A DNA stretch of 64,000 bases, from the IMG/VR virus record IMGVR_UViG_2593339199_000002, positions 1 to 64,000 of that record. One strand, given 5' to 3'. Below, one piece after another: positions 23,544 through 48,740 of the stretch (position 1 is its first letter; each line of letters opens with the position of its first letter). The notes beneath the pieces were generated by a model. That model did not search any database. It had not been told where the DNA came from and saw only the letters and a program-made list of their open reading frames with translations. The translations under genes and the position numbers were made by a program. The DNA comes from a virus. Taxonomy: Duplodnaviria > Caudoviricetes.

Positions 23544-23726
23544 CTATTCAGTTCCGTTGTTTTTCTCAATATCCCTGTTATTTCCTTGCAATCTCTGCGC
23601 CTTGTCAATTTCCAAGCCTAGCAAGAGCAGGCGCCGCGCCTCATACGCCTGATCACCCTTGTTTATCGGCTCGAAATGTTCACGCAGCTTGGTGTCCGCC
23701 TCTCGAAGCGTGACTTGCAGCCTCAT
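23544..23726 (-). CDS. Ribbon-helix-helix adaptor (ParR-like)
   Basis: Alternating strand RLQVTL followed by helices; coupled to the actin-like gene. Confidence 0.6.
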   Translation of the reverse strand: MRLQVTLREADTKLREHFEPINKGDQAYEARRLLLLGLEIDKAQRLQGNNRDIEKNNGTE

Positions 23727-24928
23727 GCCGCATCACCCTCGAATACTGGCAGCACATACTCCTCGTAAGCAGAGGTTTGGCCAATTTGATTGGAAAGCAG
23801 CAGCGCGCCGACCATATAGAAACCGATGACGTTTGCGAATTGCGGATTATCAAGTGCAACCATGATGTCGATGCCCTTCTCGGCGAACAGCTTCTGAAGC
23901 GCTTCGGTGAAGATATACGCGCCGCCGCCGGTCAGATAGATCGCATTGAGACGGTACACTTCGTCGCCCCATGCATCGAGAACGGCCTTCGAGATAATCG
24001 GCGCCACTTCGTCCACGGCCTCCTGGATCTCGGCCGAAACATCGATCGGCCTGTTCAGGTGCAGGATCTCTTTCGTTCGGATCGCTTGATCTAAGTCCTC
24101 ATCGGTTACCTTGATCCGCTTGCCCATCGCATCGAACTTCGCGACGATCAGCTTGCGCAGCGCGTCGTAGACGGCCGTGGTGGCCACTGTCGAGATAATA
24201 TGGTCCTTGCGGCGATCATCTAGCGTCCCATTCACGAACAGGGCTGCGTCAGTCGTACCGTGACCAATATCGATTACGCCAAGGTTTTTGTATTTCACGT
24301 TGTTAATCAGGAACCTCACGCGGTCAAAGAGGAAACTGTCATATGTAACCGATCCTTCCGGCTGGCGAAGCACCAGGCAGCCGACGATGTTGATCTTCTT
24401 CTTCACTGTGATGGGCTTCTTGCCATGACGATCGTAGCCGACGTGGAAATCAATCTCGTAGCTGCCGGTCAGAAATTCTTCGAGGTCCGTCCGGATATTC
24501 AGGTCGTAGTCTGCGTTCGGAACACCGGTTACGATGAACACGTCATACTCGCCTTCTTCATGCGGCACCGACATTGCTGTTGCTGTCTTAAACAGTACGC
24601 GGCTCACGGCATCCTTTGCACGGTTACGGTCGCGGGTCCGGTTCGACGCGCCCATGTCCACCTGGAGGGCCTGCATGCCGACGTAATGCGTCTCGCCTTC
24701 GATCGTAACCAGGAGCTCGTCCTTGTTGATCTCACCGCCGAAACCAACGGCGCCTTCTGCCCTGCCGGACATAGCTGTGCTTGGAAAGCTGTCTCCTGCA
24801 TTCAAGAAATTGGACAAGAGTTTCGTAATGCCAAATCCGATATCGATACCGACGAGGTACGTCTTCTTCGTTTGCTGAGCTGGAGCAACTGCTGCGGCCT
24901 CTGTAGCCTTGGCTTTTCCTACTGGCAT
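23723..24928 (-). CDS. parM: ParM/StbA-family actin-like ATPase
   Basis: GIDIGFGITK, QPEG, VIDIGHGTTD, LTGGGA and PQFANVIGF actin-fold motifs. Confidence 0.9.
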   Translation of the reverse strand: MPVGKAKATEAAAVAPAQQTKKTYLVGIDIGFGITKLLSNFLNAGDSFPSTAMSGRAEGAVGFGGEINKDELLVTIEGETHYVGMQALQVDMGASNRTRDRNRAKDAVSRVLFKTATAMSVPHEEGEYDVFIVTGVPNADYDLNIRTDLEEFLTGSYEIDFHVGYDRHGKKPITVKKKINIVGCLVLRQPEGSVTYDSFLFDRVRFLINNVKYKNLGVIDIGHGTTDAALFVNGTLDDRRKDHIISTVATTAVYDALRKLIVAKFDAMGKRIKVTDEDLDQAIRTKEILHLNRPIDVSAEIQEAVDEVAPIISKAVLDAWGDEVYRLNAIYLTGGGAYIFTEALQKLFAEKGIDIMVALDNPQFANVIGFYMVGALLLSNQIGQTSAYEEYVLPVFEGDAA

Positions 24929-25653: not shown

Positions 25654-25728
25654 TGGAGCGGGATGATGGATTCGAACCACCGTCTCTCAGTTTGCAACCG
25701 AGTGCCTTAACCACTTGGCTAATCCCGC
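25654..25728 (-). tRNA. tRNA-Cys(GCA)
   Basis: Cloverleaf GCGGGAT...CTCGG-TTGCAAA-CTGAG...GGTTCGAATCC...T-CCA; U73 discriminator. Confidence 0.9.
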
Positions 25729-25731
25729 AGA

Positions 25732-25809
25732 TGGAGCGCAGAGAAGGATTCGAACCTCCGAATGGCCGGCTTGCGAGCCAGCTGCGTTAAGCCGCTTCGC
25801 CATCTGCGC
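25732..25809 (-). tRNA. Atypical tRNA with Cys-like body and 8-nt anticodon loop CUCGCAAG
   Basis: GCGCAGA/TCTGCGC acceptor, U73, encoded CCA, normal T arm; anticodon stem GCTGG/CCGGC encloses 8 nt. Confidence 0.75.
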
Positions 25810-25813
25810 ATGA

Positions 25814-25885
25814 TGGTGGAACGAGCTGGGTTACTCTCCCCAAGCATTTCTCGGTAGGGCATTCCCACCCGAGCCGCGCTGATCC
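25814..25885 (-). ncRNA. tRNA-like RNA ending in ACCA, lacking canonical D and T loops
   Basis: 72 nt between tRNAs with short spacers; GGA/TCC-ACCA ends and two internal hairpins. Confidence 0.5.
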
Positions 25886-25892
25886 ATAGGTA

Positions 25893-25979
25893 TGGCTCTC
25901 CAGATGGGACTCGAACCCATGACATCGTAGGCATGTTATCGCCGGCTTCTACGTGCTCTATCTTCTGAGCTACTGGAGA
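25893..25979 (-). tRNA. Atypical tRNA with 18-nt anticodon loop (identity undetermined)
   Basis: Perfect acceptor TCTCCAG/CTGGAGA, D arm GCTC/GAGC, T arm ATGGG-TTCGAGT-CCCAT and CCA; stem CGTAG/CTACG encloses AAGCCGGCGATAACATGC. Confidence 0.75.
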
Positions 25980-25983
25980 GATA

Positions 25984-26059
25984 TGGCTGACCGACCAGGG
26001 CTCGAACCTGGGACCCACGGATTAACAGTCCGTTGCTCTACCGACTGAGCTATCGATCA
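25984..26059 (-). tRNA. tRNA-Asn(GTT)
   Basis: Canonical 76-nt cloverleaf, ACGGA-CTGTTAA-TCCGT, G73, CCA. Confidence 0.93.
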
Positions 26060-32616: not shown

Positions 32617-35600
32617 ATGACAACTCAATCCGCAACCAACAACACATTCACTTCCGCAGCTGACGTACTCGGCGCACTGGCTACATTCCCGGGCATCCGT
32701 GAAGGCGGCAAGAACTTCGATGCAGTGATCAACGCAATGGTAGAGGGCAACAGCCTGCTGAACGTGCTTCATGATCCAACCGGCATTGCAGGGATCGCGC
32801 CACAGCAAGCTCACCACTTTGCCCGCTTCGTTGCAGCACATGAGCTGCCAGATCACCTAAAGCCGAAGAAGCGTGATGCCATTCAGACCCTGATCGCGGA
32901 TATCAACTTCATGACGCGGGATGCCGATGGATGGCTGGTATCGACGCTTAAGTACAATGATCCAACTCGCGACAATGGCTTTGATTTCAAATCCGAGAAT
33001 CAAATGGCAGATACCTTCGCCTCCGAGCCGGTCGTGCTGCAGATCCGCAAGAAGCTGAGCAAGGGTGAAATGGTTGTTGAGAAGCGGGCCCGCCTCATGC
33101 ATGACATCGTAACGGTGAAGATGAACTGGATCCTGGAAGAAGGCCAATCCGAGTTCACGGCAGAGCAGCTGTCGGTTCACAAGGAGCTGAATGAGAAAGG
33201 CTTCAAACTGATCATCAACGGCCAAGAGAAATACGCGAAGATGATTCAGCAAACGAACAGCCAAGCACGCCAAGTGATGGAGAACTTCCTGGTGTGCGAT
33301 AACGAGTTCGATGCGGTTCCTGACTTCTTCATGAAGCTCGGCCACAACCTGATTGCCTATGCCAAGAAGAACGCTGATGGCACCATGACGATCGATTGCA
33401 CCAAGTACATGAGCCGTATTGGTCTGTCCGGCACCAGCTCCGTGAATACCCGCTCCATCTCGATCGGCAGCGATATCCAAGAGAATGACGAGCTCTACAG
33501 CGTGGTGGGCGGCAACTTCACGATGCGTATTCAACCCGACGTCCATGTGAAGATCCGCACGGGCCAATACAAAGTCATGAATGCGCAGACACACGAGTTT
33601 GAGGTATTCGATGCAGCGAACCATCCGGTTGATATGGTTGCCGGCGACGGCCTGATCTTCGTAAACGAGCGCGTCTATAAGGCACTCGTAGCGGAGCATG
33701 GCGTAGACGTTGACGCATGGCAAGTTCGTATCACGCCGTTTGGTAAGGGACTGGCTGTCTATGTCCCTGGGCTTGAGAAAACATTCGCAGAGGATATCGT
33801 CGCATTCAATTCCGCGATCAAAGGCGACTTCCGTGATGTTGTAGGCGCACACAAGATCCAATTCCGTATCGCGTTGTTCAACAAGCCGGCGAAGAAAGTG
33901 AAGAAGTTTACGGAGTATCCTTACCAATTCGTGCATGGCACGTCCCTGACGGCAGAGGACATGATGGAGCTGGTTCGCCCGCATGTCGATAAAGTCGTTG
34001 AGATGCTGCAGGATGCAGATAAGCTGAAAGAATACCTCGGCATGGATCACCTTGATGGCGCATCTGATGAGCAGCTGGACAAGGCTCTCGTGACGACACT
34101 AATGACATTCCTGCATGAGGCACCATTCACGTATAAGGACGTGCAAATGAAGAAGTTCGCCGTGCAGCATGTCATGGACATGATCAAGAATTGGGTGGTC
34201 GGCTCCATCCCGATCCGCGGCAACTACAAGTTCATGGTGCATGATCCTATCGCAATCGTCGATGCGATTGCCTTGGACCGCAAGCTCCCAGGCAAGCTGC
34301 GTGATGAAGACGGCAATATTTCGATTCCTTCTAACCTGGGTCTGTCCGCCGGCACTGTGGTCGTCCGTGACCTGAAGGACGCTTATATAGAAGGTGAAGT
34401 CGGCATGCAGCGGAATCCACTCATCGCTAAGAGTGAATCCGCATTCGCTATGGCCGTGAAAGACGTTAAATATGCGCGTGCCGGCCACTACCGTAACCTG
34501 TGCATCATGAGCGTGCATGACTTTAATACGGCCAAGCAAGGTGGCGCCGATAATGATGGTGACAAGACGCTGGTGGTTTATGATCAAACGATCATCAAGG
34601 CAATCAAGCGCAATGCTCACCTCCCTGCCCTGCTCGATGTGCATGTCGTGGAATACAACGACGGCGAGCCTGTGTTCGACAGCGGCTGCCCGAAAACATG
34701 GAGCAAGGCACCGGAGAACGTCTACGAGATTCCCGCTTCCATGATCGTGAAACAATCGGGCTTCAAGGTAACCTTCAACAAGGATCAGTACAATGATGCG
34801 CTCATCAATGAGCTTCACAAACTGACCAAGAACTACATCACTCGCACGCTGAAGCCAAACCAAATCGGCATGCTGACGAACTATGCAACCAAGCTTGCTG
34901 ATGCTGTCCGCGCCATGGGCTATCAGTATGCACTCGGCGTGAATGCAGAAGGCAACGCCCTGACGGCAGAGGACAAGAAAGAGCTGCTCGGCAAGGTCAA
35001 GCAATTCGAGCAATGGATCGACCTGCTCCGCCTGTGCCAAGGCTGGGAGATCGATGCCGCTAAACACGGCGGCGCATTCTGGGATGAATTGGCCAACGAA
35101 CTGTCCTTCATCCAAGATCCTCCGAAGGAAGTCGGCTACGTGAACAAGAAGGGTGTTGCCGTATGGTACACGCCTGACTGGATGGGTGCACGCAACGAGA
35201 AAGAGCATGCAGTGGCAACCGGCTCCGTATTGTCCCGCGTGTTCACGGATATGGTGAAAGAGCGTGCTGGCATCCAGGCATCGGTTTCTGAACTGGACAA
35301 GCGGAATGAAGGGACCAACATTTTCTACGAGTTGAACGCAGCGATTGCCATGACGCCAGAGCGCATGGATGCTTTGAAGCCATCGATCGTCGAGATCGAC
35401 CGTGAATATCGTCTGGGCATCAAGCAGCTGATGGAGAAAGAAGCAGCTGCCAAGGAGCGGGCGATTGCCGCGGCGGACGGTAACAAGCAAAAGCTCGAAT
35501 ACTATCTGGAATTGGTGAAGCAGCAGTCCAAAGAAGAACGCGAGATGCTGATCGAATCCTGCGCTGGTCAACTTGAGCGCCTGGAAGATGTATTCCTGCC

Positions 35601-36042
35601 TGAAGAGATCGGCTTCGTTGCTTACAAGGTGGCGTATATCGATAACAAGTCCGAGTCCACGACTTTCCCATGGACTGCAGCGAAGCGTCAGCTGCTGGCG
35701 GCATGCCAAGTAGCTGCAGGCACGATTCCTACTCGCTTGCCACAGATTGCTACACGCAAAGCGGATGTAGAAATTAAGATGCAGCTGGTTAACCCACGTT
35801 CGGCTGATCTGATTGCGAAAGCGGTCCGTAACGGCTACATGGACGTGAAACTGGTTGAAGATCAGCTGACAGGCATGATGCAATACGCTGTAGGCGTAGA
35901 GAATGTGCTGCTCGGCTATGTGTACCACAATTCGGCTATCTGGTTCAACGGCATGAACCTGGGACGCGTACACTTCACCACTGGCCGCAACCTGTCCGAT
36001 AAATCGGTAGCCATTGCAGCAACTCACATTCAACTTGCTTAA
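32617..36042 (+). CDS. YonO-like single-subunit two-barrel RNA polymerase (cellular RdRP-like family)
   Basis: GDG, QVR...KG, RNP and catalytic GADNDGDK (DxDGD) motifs in a 1141-aa protein. Confidence 0.85.
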   Translation: MTTQSATNNTFTSAADVLGALATFPGIREGGKNFDAVINAMVEGNSLLNVLHDPTGIAGIAPQQAHHFARFVAAHELPDHLKPKKRDAIQTLIADINFMTRDADGWLVSTLKYNDPTRDNGFDFKSENQMADTFASEPVVLQIRKKLSKGEMVVEKRARLMHDIVTVKMNWILEEGQSEFTAEQLSVHKELNEKGFKLIINGQEKYAKMIQQTNSQARQVMENFLVCDNEFDAVPDFFMKLGHNLIAYAKKNADGTMTIDCTKYMSRIGLSGTSSVNTRSISIGSDIQENDELYSVVGGNFTMRIQPDVHVKIRTGQYKVMNAQTHEFEVFDAANHPVDMVAGDGLIFVNERVYKALVAEHGVDVDAWQVRITPFGKGLAVYVPGLEKTFAEDIVAFNSAIKGDFRDVVGAHKIQFRIALFNKPAKKVKKFTEYPYQFVHGTSLTAEDMMELVRPHVDKVVEMLQDADKLKEYLGMDHLDGASDEQLDKALVTTLMTFLHEAPFTYKDVQMKKFAVQHVMDMIKNWVVGSIPIRGNYKFMVHDPIAIVDAIALDRKLPGKLRDEDGNISIPSNLGLSAGTVVVRDLKDAYIEGEVGMQRNPLIAKSESAFAMAVKDVKYARAGHYRNLCIMSVHDFNTAKQGGADNDGDKTLVVYDQTIIKAIKRNAHLPALLDVHVVEYNDGEPVFDSGCPKTWSKAPENVYEIPASMIVKQSGFKVTFNKDQYNDALINELHKLTKNYITRTLKPNQIGMLTNYATKLADAVRAMGYQYALGVNAEGNALTAEDKKELLGKVKQFEQWIDLLRLCQGWEIDAAKHGGAFWDELANELSFIQDPPKEVGYVNKKGVAVWYTPDWMGARNEKEHAVATGSVLSRVFTDMVKERAGIQASVSELDKRNEGTNIFYELNAAIAMTPERMDALKPSIVEIDREYRLGIKQLMEKEAAAKERAIAAADGNKQKLEYYLELVKQQSKEEREMLIESCAGQLERLEDVFLPEEIGFVAYKVAYIDNKSESTTFPWTAAKRQLLAACQVAAGTIPTRLPQIATRKADVEIKMQLVNPRSADLIAKAVRNGYMDVKLVEDQLTGMMQYAVGVENVLLGYVYHNSAIWFNGMNLGRVHFTTGRNLSDKSVAIAATHIQLA

Positions 36043-43391: not shown

Positions 43392-43818
43392 CGCTTCTCC
43401 CTTGCCCCCTCCAATGACCATACTATGAGTCCCCCCGAAGGGGGCAATGCCGTCCGCTAAATGGACAGACTCCGTGCAACCTATGTAAGTATGTATCATG
43501 GAAATGATCGACCAATCAGTGTTACTTGATTGACTGTCATGCGGCTTTATTCCATAGTGGAACATGCATCTTGTCATGGATCATGTTTCTTTGGGCTCCT
43601 GCCCTTTTTCCAATTCTGGAATCTTGTTGCATGATTCCTTGATTCTTGGTGGTCTGACATGATGCTTGATTAAAAGTGCCACTATATATATTACATAGTG
43701 GCAAACTTGGGGTATTTGAACCCCAGTTTTCTTCCAATTGATGATTTCACATAATTGTCACATGTTGTTCGTATTTGTTCTGGCTGACGCCAAGGTTCAT
43801 TTTGGAGGTGGTTATCCC

Positions 43819-44352
43819 ATGTTCGTCGTACAATATCGCGATCATACGTCCTTCGATGAACTCCGTGTGGATCTGGCGCAGACTGAATCAGATTTGAACA
43901 GCTTTTGGCACCATGACGCATCGGTAATCTCAATTCAGCATGTCTGGGAGATTCCAGATGATGCGCAGTTATTTCGCCTGATTGTTGCAGGCAGCCGTGA
44001 CTTCAACGACTATCCCCTACTCCGCTCCAAGCTGGACTTCTTTCTCCAGCATCAGCCGTATACGATCATTGTGTCCGGCGCGGCCCGCGGTGCTGATTCG
44101 CTCGGTGAAGATTATGCTAAAGAACGCGGCTTGCCGATCGACCAGTTCCCTGCTGACTGGAATCCCCTCCACTTAAAAGGCAAGTTGGATCGCAGTGCAG
44201 GGTATCGTCGGAACGAACAGATGGCGAAAGTTTCACAAGGGTGCGTTTGCTTCTGGGACGGAACTTCACGCGGCACCGAGCATATGATTAATCTCGCCAA
44301 CAAATACAAACTGCAGACCCGCGTGGTCAAATATGAGGAGGAGCTTGTTTGA
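43819..44352 (+). CDS. SLOG-family (DUF2493/YspA-like) protein
   Basis: LIVAGSRDFNDY, SGAARGAD, AGYRRNEQM and FWDGTSRGT. Confidence 0.85.
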   Translation: MFVVQYRDHTSFDELRVDLAQTESDLNSFWHHDASVISIQHVWEIPDDAQLFRLIVAGSRDFNDYPLLRSKLDFFLQHQPYTIIVSGAARGADSLGEDYAKERGLPIDQFPADWNPLHLKGKLDRSAGYRRNEQMAKVSQGCVCFWDGTSRGTEHMINLANKYKLQTRVVKYEEELV

Positions 44353-44798
44353 AAGAGGTAGCGATCTATACTGATGGTGCGTGCAGCGGCAATCCCGGTC
44401 CTGGTGGCTGGGGTGCCGTTTTAATTTATGGCGATATTATCGGTAAATTTAACGGCTGCGAGGCATATTCCACGAATAATCGCATGGAGCTGATCGCCGT
44501 GATCCAAGCCCTTCGGTTACTGAATGAGCCCTGCCGCGTCCGGATTTACAGCGACTCTGCCTTCATCGTAAATTGTTTCAAGCACAAATGGCACGAGCAT
44601 TGGGTGGCCCACAACTGGCGGAACACGCAAAAGCGCAAGGTTGAGCACCGCGAGCTATGGGAGCAGTTGCTCAACCTGAACAAGCTGCATCAAGTCACCT
44701 ATCATAAAGTCGACCGGGATGCCGGCGTGCAGCATAATGTAACCGCTGATCAGCTTGCACGAGAAGCCATCATTATGTATCGCAAGACAATTGCTTAA
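44349..44798 (+). CDS. rnhA: Ribonuclease HI
   Basis: YTDGACSGNPGPGGW, TNNRMEL, YSDS and N..AD.LA. Confidence 0.92.
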   Translation: MKEVAIYTDGACSGNPGPGGWGAVLIYGDIIGKFNGCEAYSTNNRMELIAVIQALRLLNEPCRVRIYSDSAFIVNCFKHKWHEHWVAHNWRNTQKRKVEHRELWEQLLNLNKLHQVTYHKVDRDAGVQHNVTADQLAREAIIMYRKTIA

Positions 44799-44892
44799 TC
44801 CATTTTGTATCCGAATGTATACATATTGTAACTAATTAATGCAAAAGAAAACCGCTGGCGTATGCCAACGGTTGTTTGTATATCCGAGCTTA

Positions 44893-45666
44893 TTAACGAA
44901 GCAGGGACAGAACGCCTTGTGGTGCAGAGTTTGCTTGAGCCAGCATCGATTGGGAAGCTTGAAGAAGAATGTTGTTCTTCGTCAGGTTGACCATCTCGCT
45001 CGCCATGTCCGTATCGCGGATGCGGGACTCGGAAGCCGTCAGGTTCTCGGTCGTCGTGCCCAAGTTGTTGGACGTGTACTCGAGACGGTTTTGAACCGCA
45101 CCCAGCTTGCCACGCTCCGTAGCAACGGCTTTGATCCCATCATTTACTTCAGCCAGCGTAGTCGTGTCATCAAGGCCAATAAAACTAGCCGTGACAATTT
45201 GACCAATATTGATGAGAGTTCCTTTATCGTCAGTAGCGATAGCGACACCGGTTGTGTTGTTGATGTTGATTCCGTTGAACGTGGTGTTAGACATGATGTT
45301 GTCGATTTGACCACCCAGCGCTTTCATCTCTTCGCCGATGTTGGCTTTGTCTTCAGTCGAATACGTGCCGTTAGCATCTTGAACTTTCAGTTCTTTCATT
45401 CGGCTCAGCATTGCGGATACTTCGTTCAGCGCACCCTCAGCCGTTTGAACATAGGAGATGCCGTCTTGCGTATTGCGTTGAGCTTGCTGAAGTCCACGGA
45501 TTTGTCCGCGCATGTTTTCGGAGATCGAAAGACCTGCAGCGTCGTCGGCAGCGCGGTTAATGCGGAGACCCGAAGAAAGCTTCTCCATATTCTTGCCAGC
45601 AGCCGTGTTATTCAGGGCCATGTTGCGGTGCGTGTTGAGCGCGCTAATATTGTGGTTGATAATCAT
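44893..45666 (-). CDS. hag: Flagellin (short, D0/D1 only)
   Basis: MIINHNISAL, KLSSGLRINRAADDAAGL, RIRDTDMASEM and QGVLSLLR. Confidence 0.95.
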   Translation of the reverse strand: MIINHNISALNTHRNMALNNTAAGKNMEKLSSGLRINRAADDAAGLSISENMRGQIRGLQQAQRNTQDGISYVQTAEGALNEVSAMLSRMKELKVQDANGTYSTEDKANIGEEMKALGGQIDNIMSNTTFNGININNTTGVAIATDDKGTLINIGQIVTASFIGLDDTTTLAEVNDGIKAVATERGKLGAVQNRLEYTSNNLGTTTENLTASESRIRDTDMASEMVNLTKNNILLQASQSMLAQANSAPQGVLSLLR

Positions 45667-45725
45667 TTGTATTACCTCCGTGTGTGTTAGGTAGTAGATG
45701 ATTCCTTTCATCTACTTGGATTGAT

Positions 45726-45881
45726 TTACTTATCAGCGATTTCCGCCCTTACAATGGAAATCTCTTTTGGTGCCTCGATCTTTAACCGAAGCATATCGTC
45801 TTCGGTTTTAATAACTGTCACAACGATGTTGCCATTGATAATGATGCTTTCATTGGGTTTTCTACCAAGCACTAGTGCCAT
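45726..45881 (-). CDS. csrA: CsrA carbon storage regulator, 51 aa (not in the ORF track)
   Basis: Own translation MALVLGRKPNESIIINGNIVVTVIKTEDDMLRLKIEAPKEISIVRAEIADK; AAGGAGG RBS. Confidence 0.88.
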   Translation of the reverse strand: MALVLGRKPNESIIINGNIVVTVIKTEDDMLRLKIEAPKEISIVRAEIADK

Positions 45882-45912
45882 AGTACACATCCTCCTTGAT
45901 GTTCTAATAGCT

Positions 45913-45940
45913 ATATCGACCGTACAGATGGCATTGTTTA
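45913..45940 (-). promoter_or_regulatory. SigmaD (sigma28) promoter of csrA-hag
   Basis: Minus-strand TAAA-N16-GTCGATAT versus consensus TAAA-N15/16-GCCGATAT. Confidence 0.75.
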
Positions 45941-46126: not shown

Positions 46127-46237
46127 ATGATATACGCCGTCATTATTTTGCAGGTCATCACCATCGTGATCTTATTCGTTACATACACCCTAAACCGAAA
46201 AACCATTAAGATCTACAAGGAAATGAACAAGCGATGA
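46127..46237 (+). CDS. 36-aa single-TM peptide with basic tail
   Basis: AAGGAGGG RBS; MIYAVIILQVITIVILFVTYTLNRKTIKIYKEMNKR. Confidence 0.6.
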   Translation: MIYAVIILQVITIVILFVTYTLNRKTIKIYKEMNKR

Positions 46238-47543: not shown

Positions 47544-48152
47544 ATGCGGAAGCAGATTTTCGGTGTTTTTTGGGCGGCGGCCATGATGGCGCCTGGTATC
47601 ACCATGAATTTCGTACCAAAACTAGCGGCGGCCGGCATCTTCGCCGCGGCCATCGCGCTTAACGCCTACATTTTAGGGAACATGACGTGGCAAAAGCATG
47701 CCATGACCGATAAATTGACGGGTCTGCGTAACAGGGCAGCACTCGATCAACAGCTGAAGGTATATCGGAAGCGCCAGGTGTCGGTGCTCATGATCGACAT
47801 CGATAATTTCAAGTCCATCAACGATTCCTTCGGACACGCGATAGGGGATGGGGTCCTTTATGATGTGGCCAATACGATGATGAGCCAAATTCGAGGTGCT
47901 GACATCTACCGCTATGGGGGAGAGGAGTTCACGATCATCTTGCCTGGATTGCAGATACGAGAGAGCTATGCGATCGCAGAGCGCCTTCGGAAAGCCGTAG
48001 AGCAACACGTTCACGTTTATGGAAGGCCCGTGACGATTTCAATCGGCGTAGCCAGCTGCTCAGATATCAAGCTGGCGATGAAGCAGGCGGATGAATGCCT
48101 GTACGAATCCAAGCAACGAGGGAGGAATGCCACAACTGCTTGTGCATGTTGA
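47544..48152 (+). CDS. Membrane-anchored diguanylate cyclase
   Basis: TDKLTGLRNR, DIDNFKSINDSFGH..GD, RYGGEEF and K..GRN. Confidence 0.92.
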   Translation: MRKQIFGVFWAAAMMAPGITMNFVPKLAAAGIFAAAIALNAYILGNMTWQKHAMTDKLTGLRNRAALDQQLKVYRKRQVSVLMIDIDNFKSINDSFGHAIGDGVLYDVANTMMSQIRGADIYRYGGEEFTIILPGLQIRESYAIAERLRKAVEQHVHVYGRPVTISIGVASCSDIKLAMKQADECLYESKQRGRNATTACAC

Positions 48153-48236
48153 GCCTGACGGCTCGTTTCATATTAGAATCTGACCGCCATCGTGCGGTCT
48201 TTTTTTATTCCATTGAAGGGAGGAAGCCGCGTGGCC

Positions 48237-48740
48237 ATGCCTGAAGGCAAATTAGGGTTCGATAAGCTCCGGGTAGAAATGTGGGTGTCTGGAACAGCAG
48301 GGGAGGATGGTGCAGGTGGATACTGTGCTCATTTGCACAGCGTGCTTGATGGGCAGAAGTACACCAAGACTATCGCAGGCTTTGGGAACGGCGTGACGCC
48401 GACCCGTATGACATTGAAAGCCGTACTGGAAGGACTCAAGCAAATTAAGAACAAGTGCTTCATTCACATCTATACAGGTATCCCGCAGGTGAGCGCCGGC
48501 ATGAACAAGCACATTCATCGCTGGGCGAAAAAAGATTTCAAAGGAGCCAGCGGCCAGGATCTCCAGCACGAAGATCTCTGGCGCCAGATCCATTTCCTCT
48601 TGGAGGAAAGGGTGATGTCCTACAAGGTGCATTATCTAGGTGACAGCCCGAAGCCGGACAACAATATTATGGTGATCCATACGGCCAGCCAGTATGCACA
48701 GAAGGCACGCAAAAACTTCATGGAGGTGTCGATCGGATGA
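48237..48740 (+). CDS. RNase H-fold protein lacking catalytic carboxylates
   Basis: Aligns by eye with RNase HI (RMTLKAV, DLWRQI) but D/E/D positions are replaced. Confidence 0.7.
   Translation: MPEGKLGFDKLRVEMWVSGTAGEDGAGGYCAHLHSVLDGQKYTKTIAGFGNGVTPTRMTLKAVLEGLKQIKNKCFIHIYTGIPQVSAGMNKHIHRWAKKDFKGASGQDLQHEDLWRQIHFLLEERVMSYKVHYLGDSPKPDNNIMVIHTASQYAQKARKNFMEVSIG

Follow-up and report, generated by a model that had tools for sequence, protein, structure and literature searches.

A phage-borne csrA–flagellin cassette with a core-only CsrA, a candidate accessory unit for resetting the host flagellum

The DNA analysed here is a stretch of 64,000 nucleotides from a tailed phage (Duplodnaviria; Caudoviricetes), corresponding to positions 1 to 64,000 of the IMG/VR record IMGVR_UViG_2593339199_000002 and referred to below as the window. 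On its minus strand the window carries a compact cassette in which a small csrA gene (csrA-P) lies directly 5' of a flagellin gene (fla-P). A σD (FliA)-type promoter (45913–45940; TAAA at 45940–45937, a 16-nt spacer and GTCGATAT at 45920–45913) precedes csrA-P (45726–45881), which encodes a minimal CsrA of 51 amino acids behind the ribosome site AAGGAGG (45897–45891). The intercistronic spacer of 59 nt holds a leader hairpin (45693–45716) with a 9-bp stem (45716–45708/45701–45693) and the loop AAGGAA, whose GGA (45705–45703) is the first putative CsrA site; the second, ACGGAGG (45675–45681), was read from the sequence and overlaps the flagellin Shine–Dalgarno element. The intact 257-residue flagellin of Paenibacillus type encoded by fla-P (44893–45666) comprises Flagellin_N and Flagellin_C, and a predicted intrinsic terminator of the csrA–flagellin transcript (44850–44873; 10-bp stem with six GC pairs, then TTCTTTT) follows. 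Both neighbours of the cassette, an RNase H gene (44349–44798) and a 36-residue open reading frame (ORF; 46127–46237), are on the plus strand. A preliminary description had placed the promoter, the 51-residue CsrA and the intact flagellin on the strand opposite to the neighbouring genes, with AAGGA in a leader hairpin loop and ACGGA at the Shine–Dalgarno element. All of these were found at the positions given, with small corrections only (a promoter spacer of 16 nt, and a stem of 9 bp where 8 had been read), and the observation is confirmed and is stronger than first reported.

CsrA-P was matched to the Pfam CsrA family (PF02599) with an E value of 5.4e-18 and a score of 65.1 bits (cut-off 27); its residues 3–51 cover positions 2–50 of the 53-position profile. 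An ATG at 45890 abuts GGAGG, so the usable start is the ATG at 45881, 9 nt after GGAGG; homologues begin at the same point, and on this reading of the sequence the length of 51 residues is correct. The protein consists of the β-strand core only, with neither C-terminal helix nor extension. It aligns to residues 1–48 of solved CsrA structures, among them chain 5dmb_D of 83 residues and a 49-residue chain deposited as 'Truncated-CsrA' (5z38_E), and the latter indicates that a core of such size can fold. Residues Leu3, Arg7, Lys8, Ile43, Arg45 and Glu47 are invariant in the family of short CsrA proteins and align with those of the solved proteins. The predicted RNA-binding pattern of the family is thereby present in strand 1 (Leu, Leu, Arg/Lys) and in strand 5 (the equivalent of Arg44 and a hydrophobic residue); the roles assigned to these residues are in part those given in PMC7366521. 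CsrA-P is 54% identical to the canonical 74-residue CsrA of Paenibacillus, whose gene follows fliW, and ends at canonical position 50. Its identity to other naturally short CsrA proteins (51–65 residues) is 69–80%, and that to the CsrA of an unrelated 125-kb phage is 73%. The initial view of CsrA-P as a truncated protein therefore did not hold, since a protein closer to short CsrAs than to the canonical one points to a natural short lineage and not to a broken host gene. The accompanying claim that the C-terminal extension is missing was upheld, as nothing is present beyond canonical position 50 and the region with V/I51 and N55 is gone.

The absence of this region bears on FliW, the antagonist of CsrA. 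FliW (PF02623) was not found at E ≤ 1 in the complete record of 99,904 bp, which represents about half of the phage; the absence of fliW first noted for the window thus extends to the whole record. FliW is likewise absent from ten of ten other viral carriers of the cassette (six of which are at least 90% complete) and from three of three complete phage-plasmids, that is, from all 14 cassette-bearing replicons. FliS is absent from 11 of 11 cassette carriers, and none of the 101 viral CsrA rows has FliW within 600 nt. The CsrA tail, defined as the residues after the conserved Arg, was measured over all collected loci. In genomic CsrAs encoded beside FliW (32 rows) the tail has 28–39 residues with a median of 33, whereas in viral CsrAs 5' of flagellin (11 rows, ten of them distinct) it has 6–25 residues with a median of 9; viral CsrAs away from flagellin (90 rows) differ from the latter, with 8–40 residues and a median of 17. 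The tail of CsrA-P has six residues. An Asn at position +11 after the conserved Arg occurs in 12 of 30 distinct FliW-linked CsrAs and in none of the ten distinct cassette CsrAs; an Asn at +10 or +11 is present in all 16 FliW-linked tails listed and at neither position in those ten cassette proteins. Of the two features that mark a FliW-regulated CsrA, a C-terminal helix with N55 and V/I51 and a fliW gene in the replicon, CsrA-P has neither. The available text of published work reports that N55 of Bacillus subtilis CsrA is essential for FliW binding (10.1101/2020.07.02.184341), that Campylobacter jejuni CsrA lacking residues 56–75 nearly loses FliW, V51 and N55 being crucial (PMC7829508), and that in Helicobacter pylori neither CsrA1-58 nor CsrA1-54 binds FliW2 (PMC11905337). 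Each of these published truncations of C. jejuni and H. pylori CsrA is longer than CsrA-P. Taken together, the missing N55 region and these truncations support well the prediction that CsrA-P is blind to FliW.

The flagellin was matched over its full length by both helical domains, PF00669 (144 bits, 4.1e-42) and PF00700 (99.7 bits, 1.2e-28), and is 82–86% identical to Paenibacillus flagellins of 255–257 residues, from which Paenibacillus is the likely host genus. A comparison with 50 host flagellins gave a conservation of 85–95% for the first 80 and the last 77 residues and of 49–66% for the middle. Among the columns that are at least 90% conserved in the hosts, Fla-P departs at four residues only, and its C-terminal half is 88–95% conserved. 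This is the pattern to be expected of a subunit that would still be chaperoned, exported and polymerised while presenting a different exposed face; export of Fla-P and its polymerisation into filaments are predicted on these grounds only. The flagellins of the carriers range from 257 to 654 residues and group by apparent host, not by large-terminase (TerL) lineage.

The σD/FliA consensus is TAAA, about 15 nt and GCCGATAT. The cassette promoter, TAAA-N16-GTCGATAT, has one mismatch to the −10 consensus and a spacer one base longer than usual (16 instead of 15), and it lies 59 nt 5' of the csrA-P start. The pattern TAAA-N16-18-CGATAT has a single match on both strands of the window (0.31 expected; at least one in 26 of 100 shuffles) and also a single match in the 99.9-kb record. 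By itself the candidate motif is therefore not significant and proves little; its weight comes from its position and conservation. Eight of 11 other cassettes have an equivalent motif at −58 to −75 from the csrA start, and all three of three phage-plasmids have it at −62 to −74. In total a σD-type promoter precedes csrA in 11 of 14 replicons and in one chromosomal copy, and a second one lies before the flagellin gene in a single cassette (L200). The hag promoter of a host locus (L176) shares the form of the cassette promoter. A search of the 99.9-kb record revealed no sigma factor, and a phage-encoded sigma factor was rejected for that reason. Among the listed sequencing runs the cassette was located in one DNA run, probably its own source, and in no RNA run.

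The leader hairpin of fla-P has a minimum free energy of −13.2 kcal/mol (z = −2.67), equalled by one of 200 shuffles. A GGA in the hairpin loop was also obtained in six of seven other accessory leaders that were folded and in the host hag leader, although the stem sequences differ; the leader of the Paenibacillus urinalis cassette, judged by eye, has a GGA hairpin loop likewise. ACGGAGG lies 8 nt before the fla-P ATG and 26 nt beyond the loop GGA, and eight other loci (L028, L185, L187, L188, L189, L191, L192 and L204) have (C)ACGGAGGTA ahead of the flagellin start codon. The csrA–flagellin spacer is at most 76 nt in 13 of 15 cassettes and at most 30 nt in five; in four of these five (L189, L191, L202 and L204) the stop codon of csrA falls inside the ribosome site of the flagellin gene or beyond it. 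A scan with Rfam gathering thresholds returned three tRNAs and no known small RNA sponge.

The cassette is phage-borne, as had been proposed: genes for a portal protein (3.1e-57) and a large terminase (1.2e-37) lie to its left and those for helicases, a primase and a sliding clamp to its right, so that in this jumbo phage it separates the structural module from the replication module. The record was deposited in IMG/VR as a 99,904-bp 'provirus' that is 51% complete, and the encoded proteins also occur on a contig of about 213.5 kb. An artefact of the provirus call, with the cassette in host flanking sequence, was considered and rejected. The TerL is 34–43% identical to those of the jumbo phages Moorella MTATph1, Bacillus vB_BceM_WH1 and 0305phi8-36, 70% identical to the TerL of an IMG/VR phage of 194.7 kb (99% complete), and 70–77% identical to the terminases of eight 'plasmids' of 200–260 kb from Bacillus and Paenibacillus. 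The latter come from Paenibacillus rhizovicinus, P. urinalis, Bacillus thuringiensis, B. halotolerans, B. licheniformis and B. paralicheniformis. An actin-like segregation protein of the ParM/Alp type is encoded at 23723–24928 (−; ALP_N 1.2e-19, with MreB-like, ParM and Alp7A C-terminal domains); this protein and the relatives deposited as plasmids suggest that the jumbo phage persists as a prophage in the manner of a plasmid. The element is thus probably a jumbo, plasmid-like temperate phage of Paenibacillus. A megablast search with positions 40–52 kb of the window against GenBank phages gave no match, and none of the 74 genomes searched from the GTDB genus to which Paenibacillus sp. J5C2022 belongs contained the window TerL, a result that is uninformative on the host.

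Another 13 replicons, either phages or phage-plasmids, were verified to carry the csrA–flagellin pair, and they belong to three or more terminase lineages. A search of viral contigs with the single flagellin sequence found no relative; a scan based on an alignment yielded 16 IMG/VR contigs with a related flagellin. Two of these are cut at the contig end, and csrA lies directly 5' of the flagellin gene at nine of the 14 loci that could be assessed. In Bacillus phage EZ-2018a (118 kb) a divergent CsrA-like ORF and a σD motif accompany a flagellin that is one of only 12 flagellin matches in 50,697 GenBank phage records; the CsrA-like gene was found only by inspecting the DNA 5' of the flagellin gene. 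A tblastn search of GenBank phages with the 51-residue CsrA gave no match at 1e-3, the short query being a weak one. Three jumbo phage-plasmids are annotated with a 'carbon storage regulator' followed by a 'flagellin'. By TerL the carriers fall into at least three groups, namely jumbo phages, phages of about 120 kb (49–53% mutual identity) and smaller elements of 41–53 kb. Among five jumbo relatives both genes are present in three, neither is present in two, and a single gene is present in none. The CsrAs and flagellins of a 124-kb phage and a 204-kb B. halotolerans replicon are 89 and 88% identical, respectively, and the TerL lineages of these two carriers show no cross-match. The genes that flank the cassette in the window are not common to other carriers, so that a 284-residue ORF upstream (no family above threshold in Pfam or NCBIfam) and a nearby GGDEF gene are placed outside the unit. 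A pair shared across TerL lineages that show no cross-match, present or absent jointly and with unshared flanks, points to one mobile unit that moves between phages. In two replicons of about 200 kb (L202, B. halotolerans; L204, B. licheniformis) the cassette was located between the gene for a DnaA N-domain protein and dnaN, a neighbourhood that differs from that in the window and has, as annotated, an LXG polymorphic-toxin gene nearby.

Like the Hag–FliW–CsrA system of Bacillus subtilis, the cassette has csrA directly 5' of a flagellin gene, a σD-type promoter, and a flagellin leader with one GGA in a hairpin loop and another at the ribosome site. It differs in that the replicon has no fliW, that CsrA is without the N55 helix and extension, that it is carried by a phage, and that the promoter stands ahead of csrA and not in the csrA–hag interval. 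In the host locus the order is fliW, csrA (74 residues), a 131-nt spacer holding the σD promoter of hag itself, and hag; the host hag leader (L176) has AAGGAC in a hairpin loop and a ribosome site that contains GGA. With the promoter 5' of csrA, csrA-P and fla-P would form one transcript.

The nearest known system is that of the TldR–FliC(P) flagellar-remodelling prophages of Enterobacter, together with the chromosomal csrA–tldR–fliC loci of Clostridia. In the former, according to the available text of PMC10705468 and PMC13418256, a mobile element carries its own flagellin beside a repressor of flagellin expression, as the cassette would, and in the latter an accessory CsrA binds a flagellin 5' untranslated region (UTR; PMC13418256). 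The cassette differs from TldR–FliC(P) in that a TnpB/TldR domain is lacking, repression would be translational only and the hosts are Bacillales. No match to TnpB/TldR (PF07282) was found in the record, and a TldR partner for the cassette was rejected on this basis. For the csrA-associated TldRs, the text available from PMC10705468 states that no bacteriophage association was detected. The survey of phage and plasmid CsrA/Rsm homologues in PMC7366521, which likewise concerns phage-borne members of the CsrA family, lists csrA in 30 of 2517 phage genomes; unlike the present case, its available text makes no mention of Bacillus or Paenibacillus phages or of a pairing with flagellin. The literature searched contains no description of a phage csrA–flagellin pairing, a mention in supplementary tables being possible. 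Chromosomal csrA–flagellin pairs in Brevibacillus reuszeri, Halobacillus yeomjeoni, Paenibacillus sp. J5C2022 and Lachnospiraceae are similar to the cassette, each with a short or atypical CsrA directly 5' of an extra flagellin and no adjacent FliW, and the Brevibacillus pair has the same σD motif and leader design. They differ in that the chromosome also holds a canonical fliW–csrA locus, and they too are without a description in the literature searched.

Several further loci were recorded in the course of this comparison. At seven chromosomal loci of Clostridia (L032, L034, L042, L054, L056, L057 and L079) csrA lies directly 5' of flagellin with no adjacent FliW, and their CsrAs have in common a distinct tail, conserved over about 24 residues, that contains a Cys and ends in Trp; these may be the published csrA–tldR–fliC loci. 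In Paenibacillus sp. J5C2022 (L179, G001:C58) three short csrA genes are present in addition to the canonical fliW–csrA, two of the short genes being in tandem 5' of an extra flagellin gene, and Halobacillus yeomjeoni (L029) has two csrA–flagellin units in tandem beside fliW.

The interpretation that we favour, with a probability of roughly 60%, is that a FliW-blind CsrA-P and a host-compatible Fla-P form an accessory unit (moron) that resets the amount and type of flagellin in the host. Host RNA polymerase with σD, which is active only in motile cells, would transcribe a bicistronic csrA-P/fla-P mRNA. CsrA-P would retain the RNA-binding β-core without the docking surface for FliW, would bind the GGA sites in flagellin leaders (the hairpin loop and the Shine–Dalgarno element) and would repress flagellin translation, including that of host hag. 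As FliW would be unable to switch CsrA-P off, the secretion-coupled feedback on host Hag is proposed to be overridden. The short or overlapping intercistronic region and the lack of a promoter of its own would link translation of Fla-P in cis to that of csrA-P. Fla-P, in which the assembly termini are conserved and the exposed middle has diverged, would be exported by the host machinery and would change the make-up of the filament, from which phage or host may benefit.

A sharper version can be put forward tentatively only. It supposes a 'flagellin swap' in which CsrA-P silences the host flagellin while Fla-P, read from the same σD transcript and often with the csrA stop codon in or beside its ribosome site, evades repression by translational coupling and supplants Hag in the filament. 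Equally tentative is its suggestion that the module has spread repeatedly among large phages and phage-plasmids of motile Firmicutes and may give its carriers a new flagellar surface.

A number of observations weigh against the proposed accessory unit or against parts of it. The leader of fla-P itself bears the same CsrA-type sites, a point that the preliminary description missed, and CsrA-P may therefore throttle Fla-P as much as host Hag. Escape of Fla-P from this repression is something that we infer only from geometry, and in the window the csrA-P stop codon lies 10 nt before the leader hairpin, so that translational coupling would be weak here. CsrA-P scores 55.2 bits against the cut-off of 70.1 for the NCBIfam csrA equivalog (TIGR00202), a shortfall that fits the missing C-terminal third, and a helix-less CsrA of 51 residues could be less stable or less active. 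Fla-P scores 285.6 bits against the cut-off of 352 for the NCBIfam 'flagellin Hag' model, which is 301 positions long; Paenibacillus-type flagellins are shorter. The csrA gene is missing at five of the 14 assessable viral flagellin genes, the CsrA-like protein of EZ-2018a is without the basic residues of strand 1, and the cassette is dispensable, being absent from two of the five closest jumbo relatives. Residual binding of FliW is also conceivable, in view of a salt bridge between FliW K123 and CsrA D41 in the core that is needed for inhibition in B. subtilis, according to the available text (10.1101/2020.07.02.184341).

The best-surviving alternative, which we regard as considerably less probable than the accessory unit, is that CsrA-P limits the flagellin of its own cassette, replacing the FliW sensor as a private homeostat with little effect on host hag. 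The CsrA-type sites in the leader of the cassette itself, conserved across cassettes, are what such a circuit would use; the two genes are predicted to share a transcript in every case and come and go as a pair, and each accessory flagellin gene on the chromosomes of Halobacillus, Brevibacillus, Paenibacillus and Clostridia is accompanied by a short CsrA of its own with no adjacent FliW. Host hag leaders, however, hold the same kind of sites (L176), and a diffusible CsrA dimer would be expected to bind there too. In RIP-seq data for the csrA–tldR–fliC loci, as given in the available text of PMC13418256, the accessory CsrA was found on the 5' UTR of another flagellin gene, which also speaks against a purely private role.

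It is unlikely that the cassette acts to shut the flagellum off. On that account CsrA-P would repress hag unrelieved while cytoplasmic Fla-P titrates FliW, so that host CsrA stays active; the outcome, equally unlikely, would be a loss of filaments that blocks flagellotropic competitor phages or the adsorption of progeny to doomed cells. The FliW-binding region of flagellin lies in the C-terminal half, which in Fla-P is well conserved, as described above, and a predicted membrane-anchored GGDEF diguanylate cyclase is encoded 1.7 kb away; cyclic di-GMP (c-di-GMP) inhibits motility in Bacilli. The GGDEF gene is nevertheless present in only one of 11 cassette-bearing records. A FliW sponge, moreover, would need neither the full conservation of an assembling subunit nor sizes that follow the host from 257 to 654 residues, and if CsrA-P represses Fla-P little of the sponge would be made.

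Very improbable is a residual control of CsrA-P by FliW through the β-core, the cassette merely adding dosage to the Hag–FliW–CsrA loop: the K123–D41 salt bridge would permit it, but the residue aligned to D41 is a Ser in CsrA-P, N55 contacts are reported to mediate the initial binding (available text of 10.1101/2020.07.02.184341) and truncations longer than CsrA-P lose binding (PMC7829508, PMC11905337; available text). We give as little credence to passenger DNA, a recently captured piece of the host flagellar locus with no selected phage function, since the high identity of the flagellin to host flagellins and the absence of the cassette from two of five close relatives are set against two intact frames, the recurrence of the same design in 14 replicons that represent three or more lineages of terminase, and an arrangement unlike the host fliW–csrA–promoter–hag order (no fliW, a short csrA lineage, the promoter moved and the spacer compressed).

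If the accessory-unit interpretation is correct, phages of Bacillus and Paenibacillus control a major surface organelle of the host by a tiny device, a core-only CsrA and a replacement subunit, and the FliW checkpoint of the host cannot see this CsrA. Flagellar remodelling by phages, which has been shown for the RNA-guided TldR in Enterobacter, would then extend to Gram-positive bacteria and to translational control. Under the sharper version the cassette would be a translational counterpart of TldR remodelling that operates through deletion of the sensor surface of a regulator. The cassettes would in addition constitute a natural experiment on the role of the CsrA C-terminus. Motility and biofilm formation may be affected, as may the sensitivity of the cells to flagellotropic phages and the recognition of flagellin by plants or animals. 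Complete replicons of about 200 kb in cultured B. licheniformis and B. halotolerans strains carry the cassette, which makes the proposal directly testable.

Other genes of the window were recorded as follows. A SLOG/YAcAr-domain protein is encoded at 43738–44352 (+), immediately 5' of the first RNase H gene, and a second RNase H gene lies on the other side of the cassette at 48192–48740 (+); the matches of the two RNase H genes have E values of 7.6e-35 and 2.8e-07. The GGDEF gene (47544–48152, +) encodes a protein of 202 residues with a GGEEF motif (Pfam 4.7e-38; TIGR00254, 141 bits) and two predicted N-terminal membrane segments, consistent with its prediction as a diguanylate cyclase. A 1141-residue protein (32617–36042, +) gave a weak match to PF05183, the cellular RNA-dependent RNA polymerase family (31.3 bits against 23.8), and may be a YonO-like single-subunit RNA polymerase. 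Three tRNA genes are located at 25654–26059 (−), namely those for Cys and Asn and a third with an 8-nt anticodon loop, which was read as 'cgca' by ARAGORN and scored 45.5 bits with the Rfam tRNA model.

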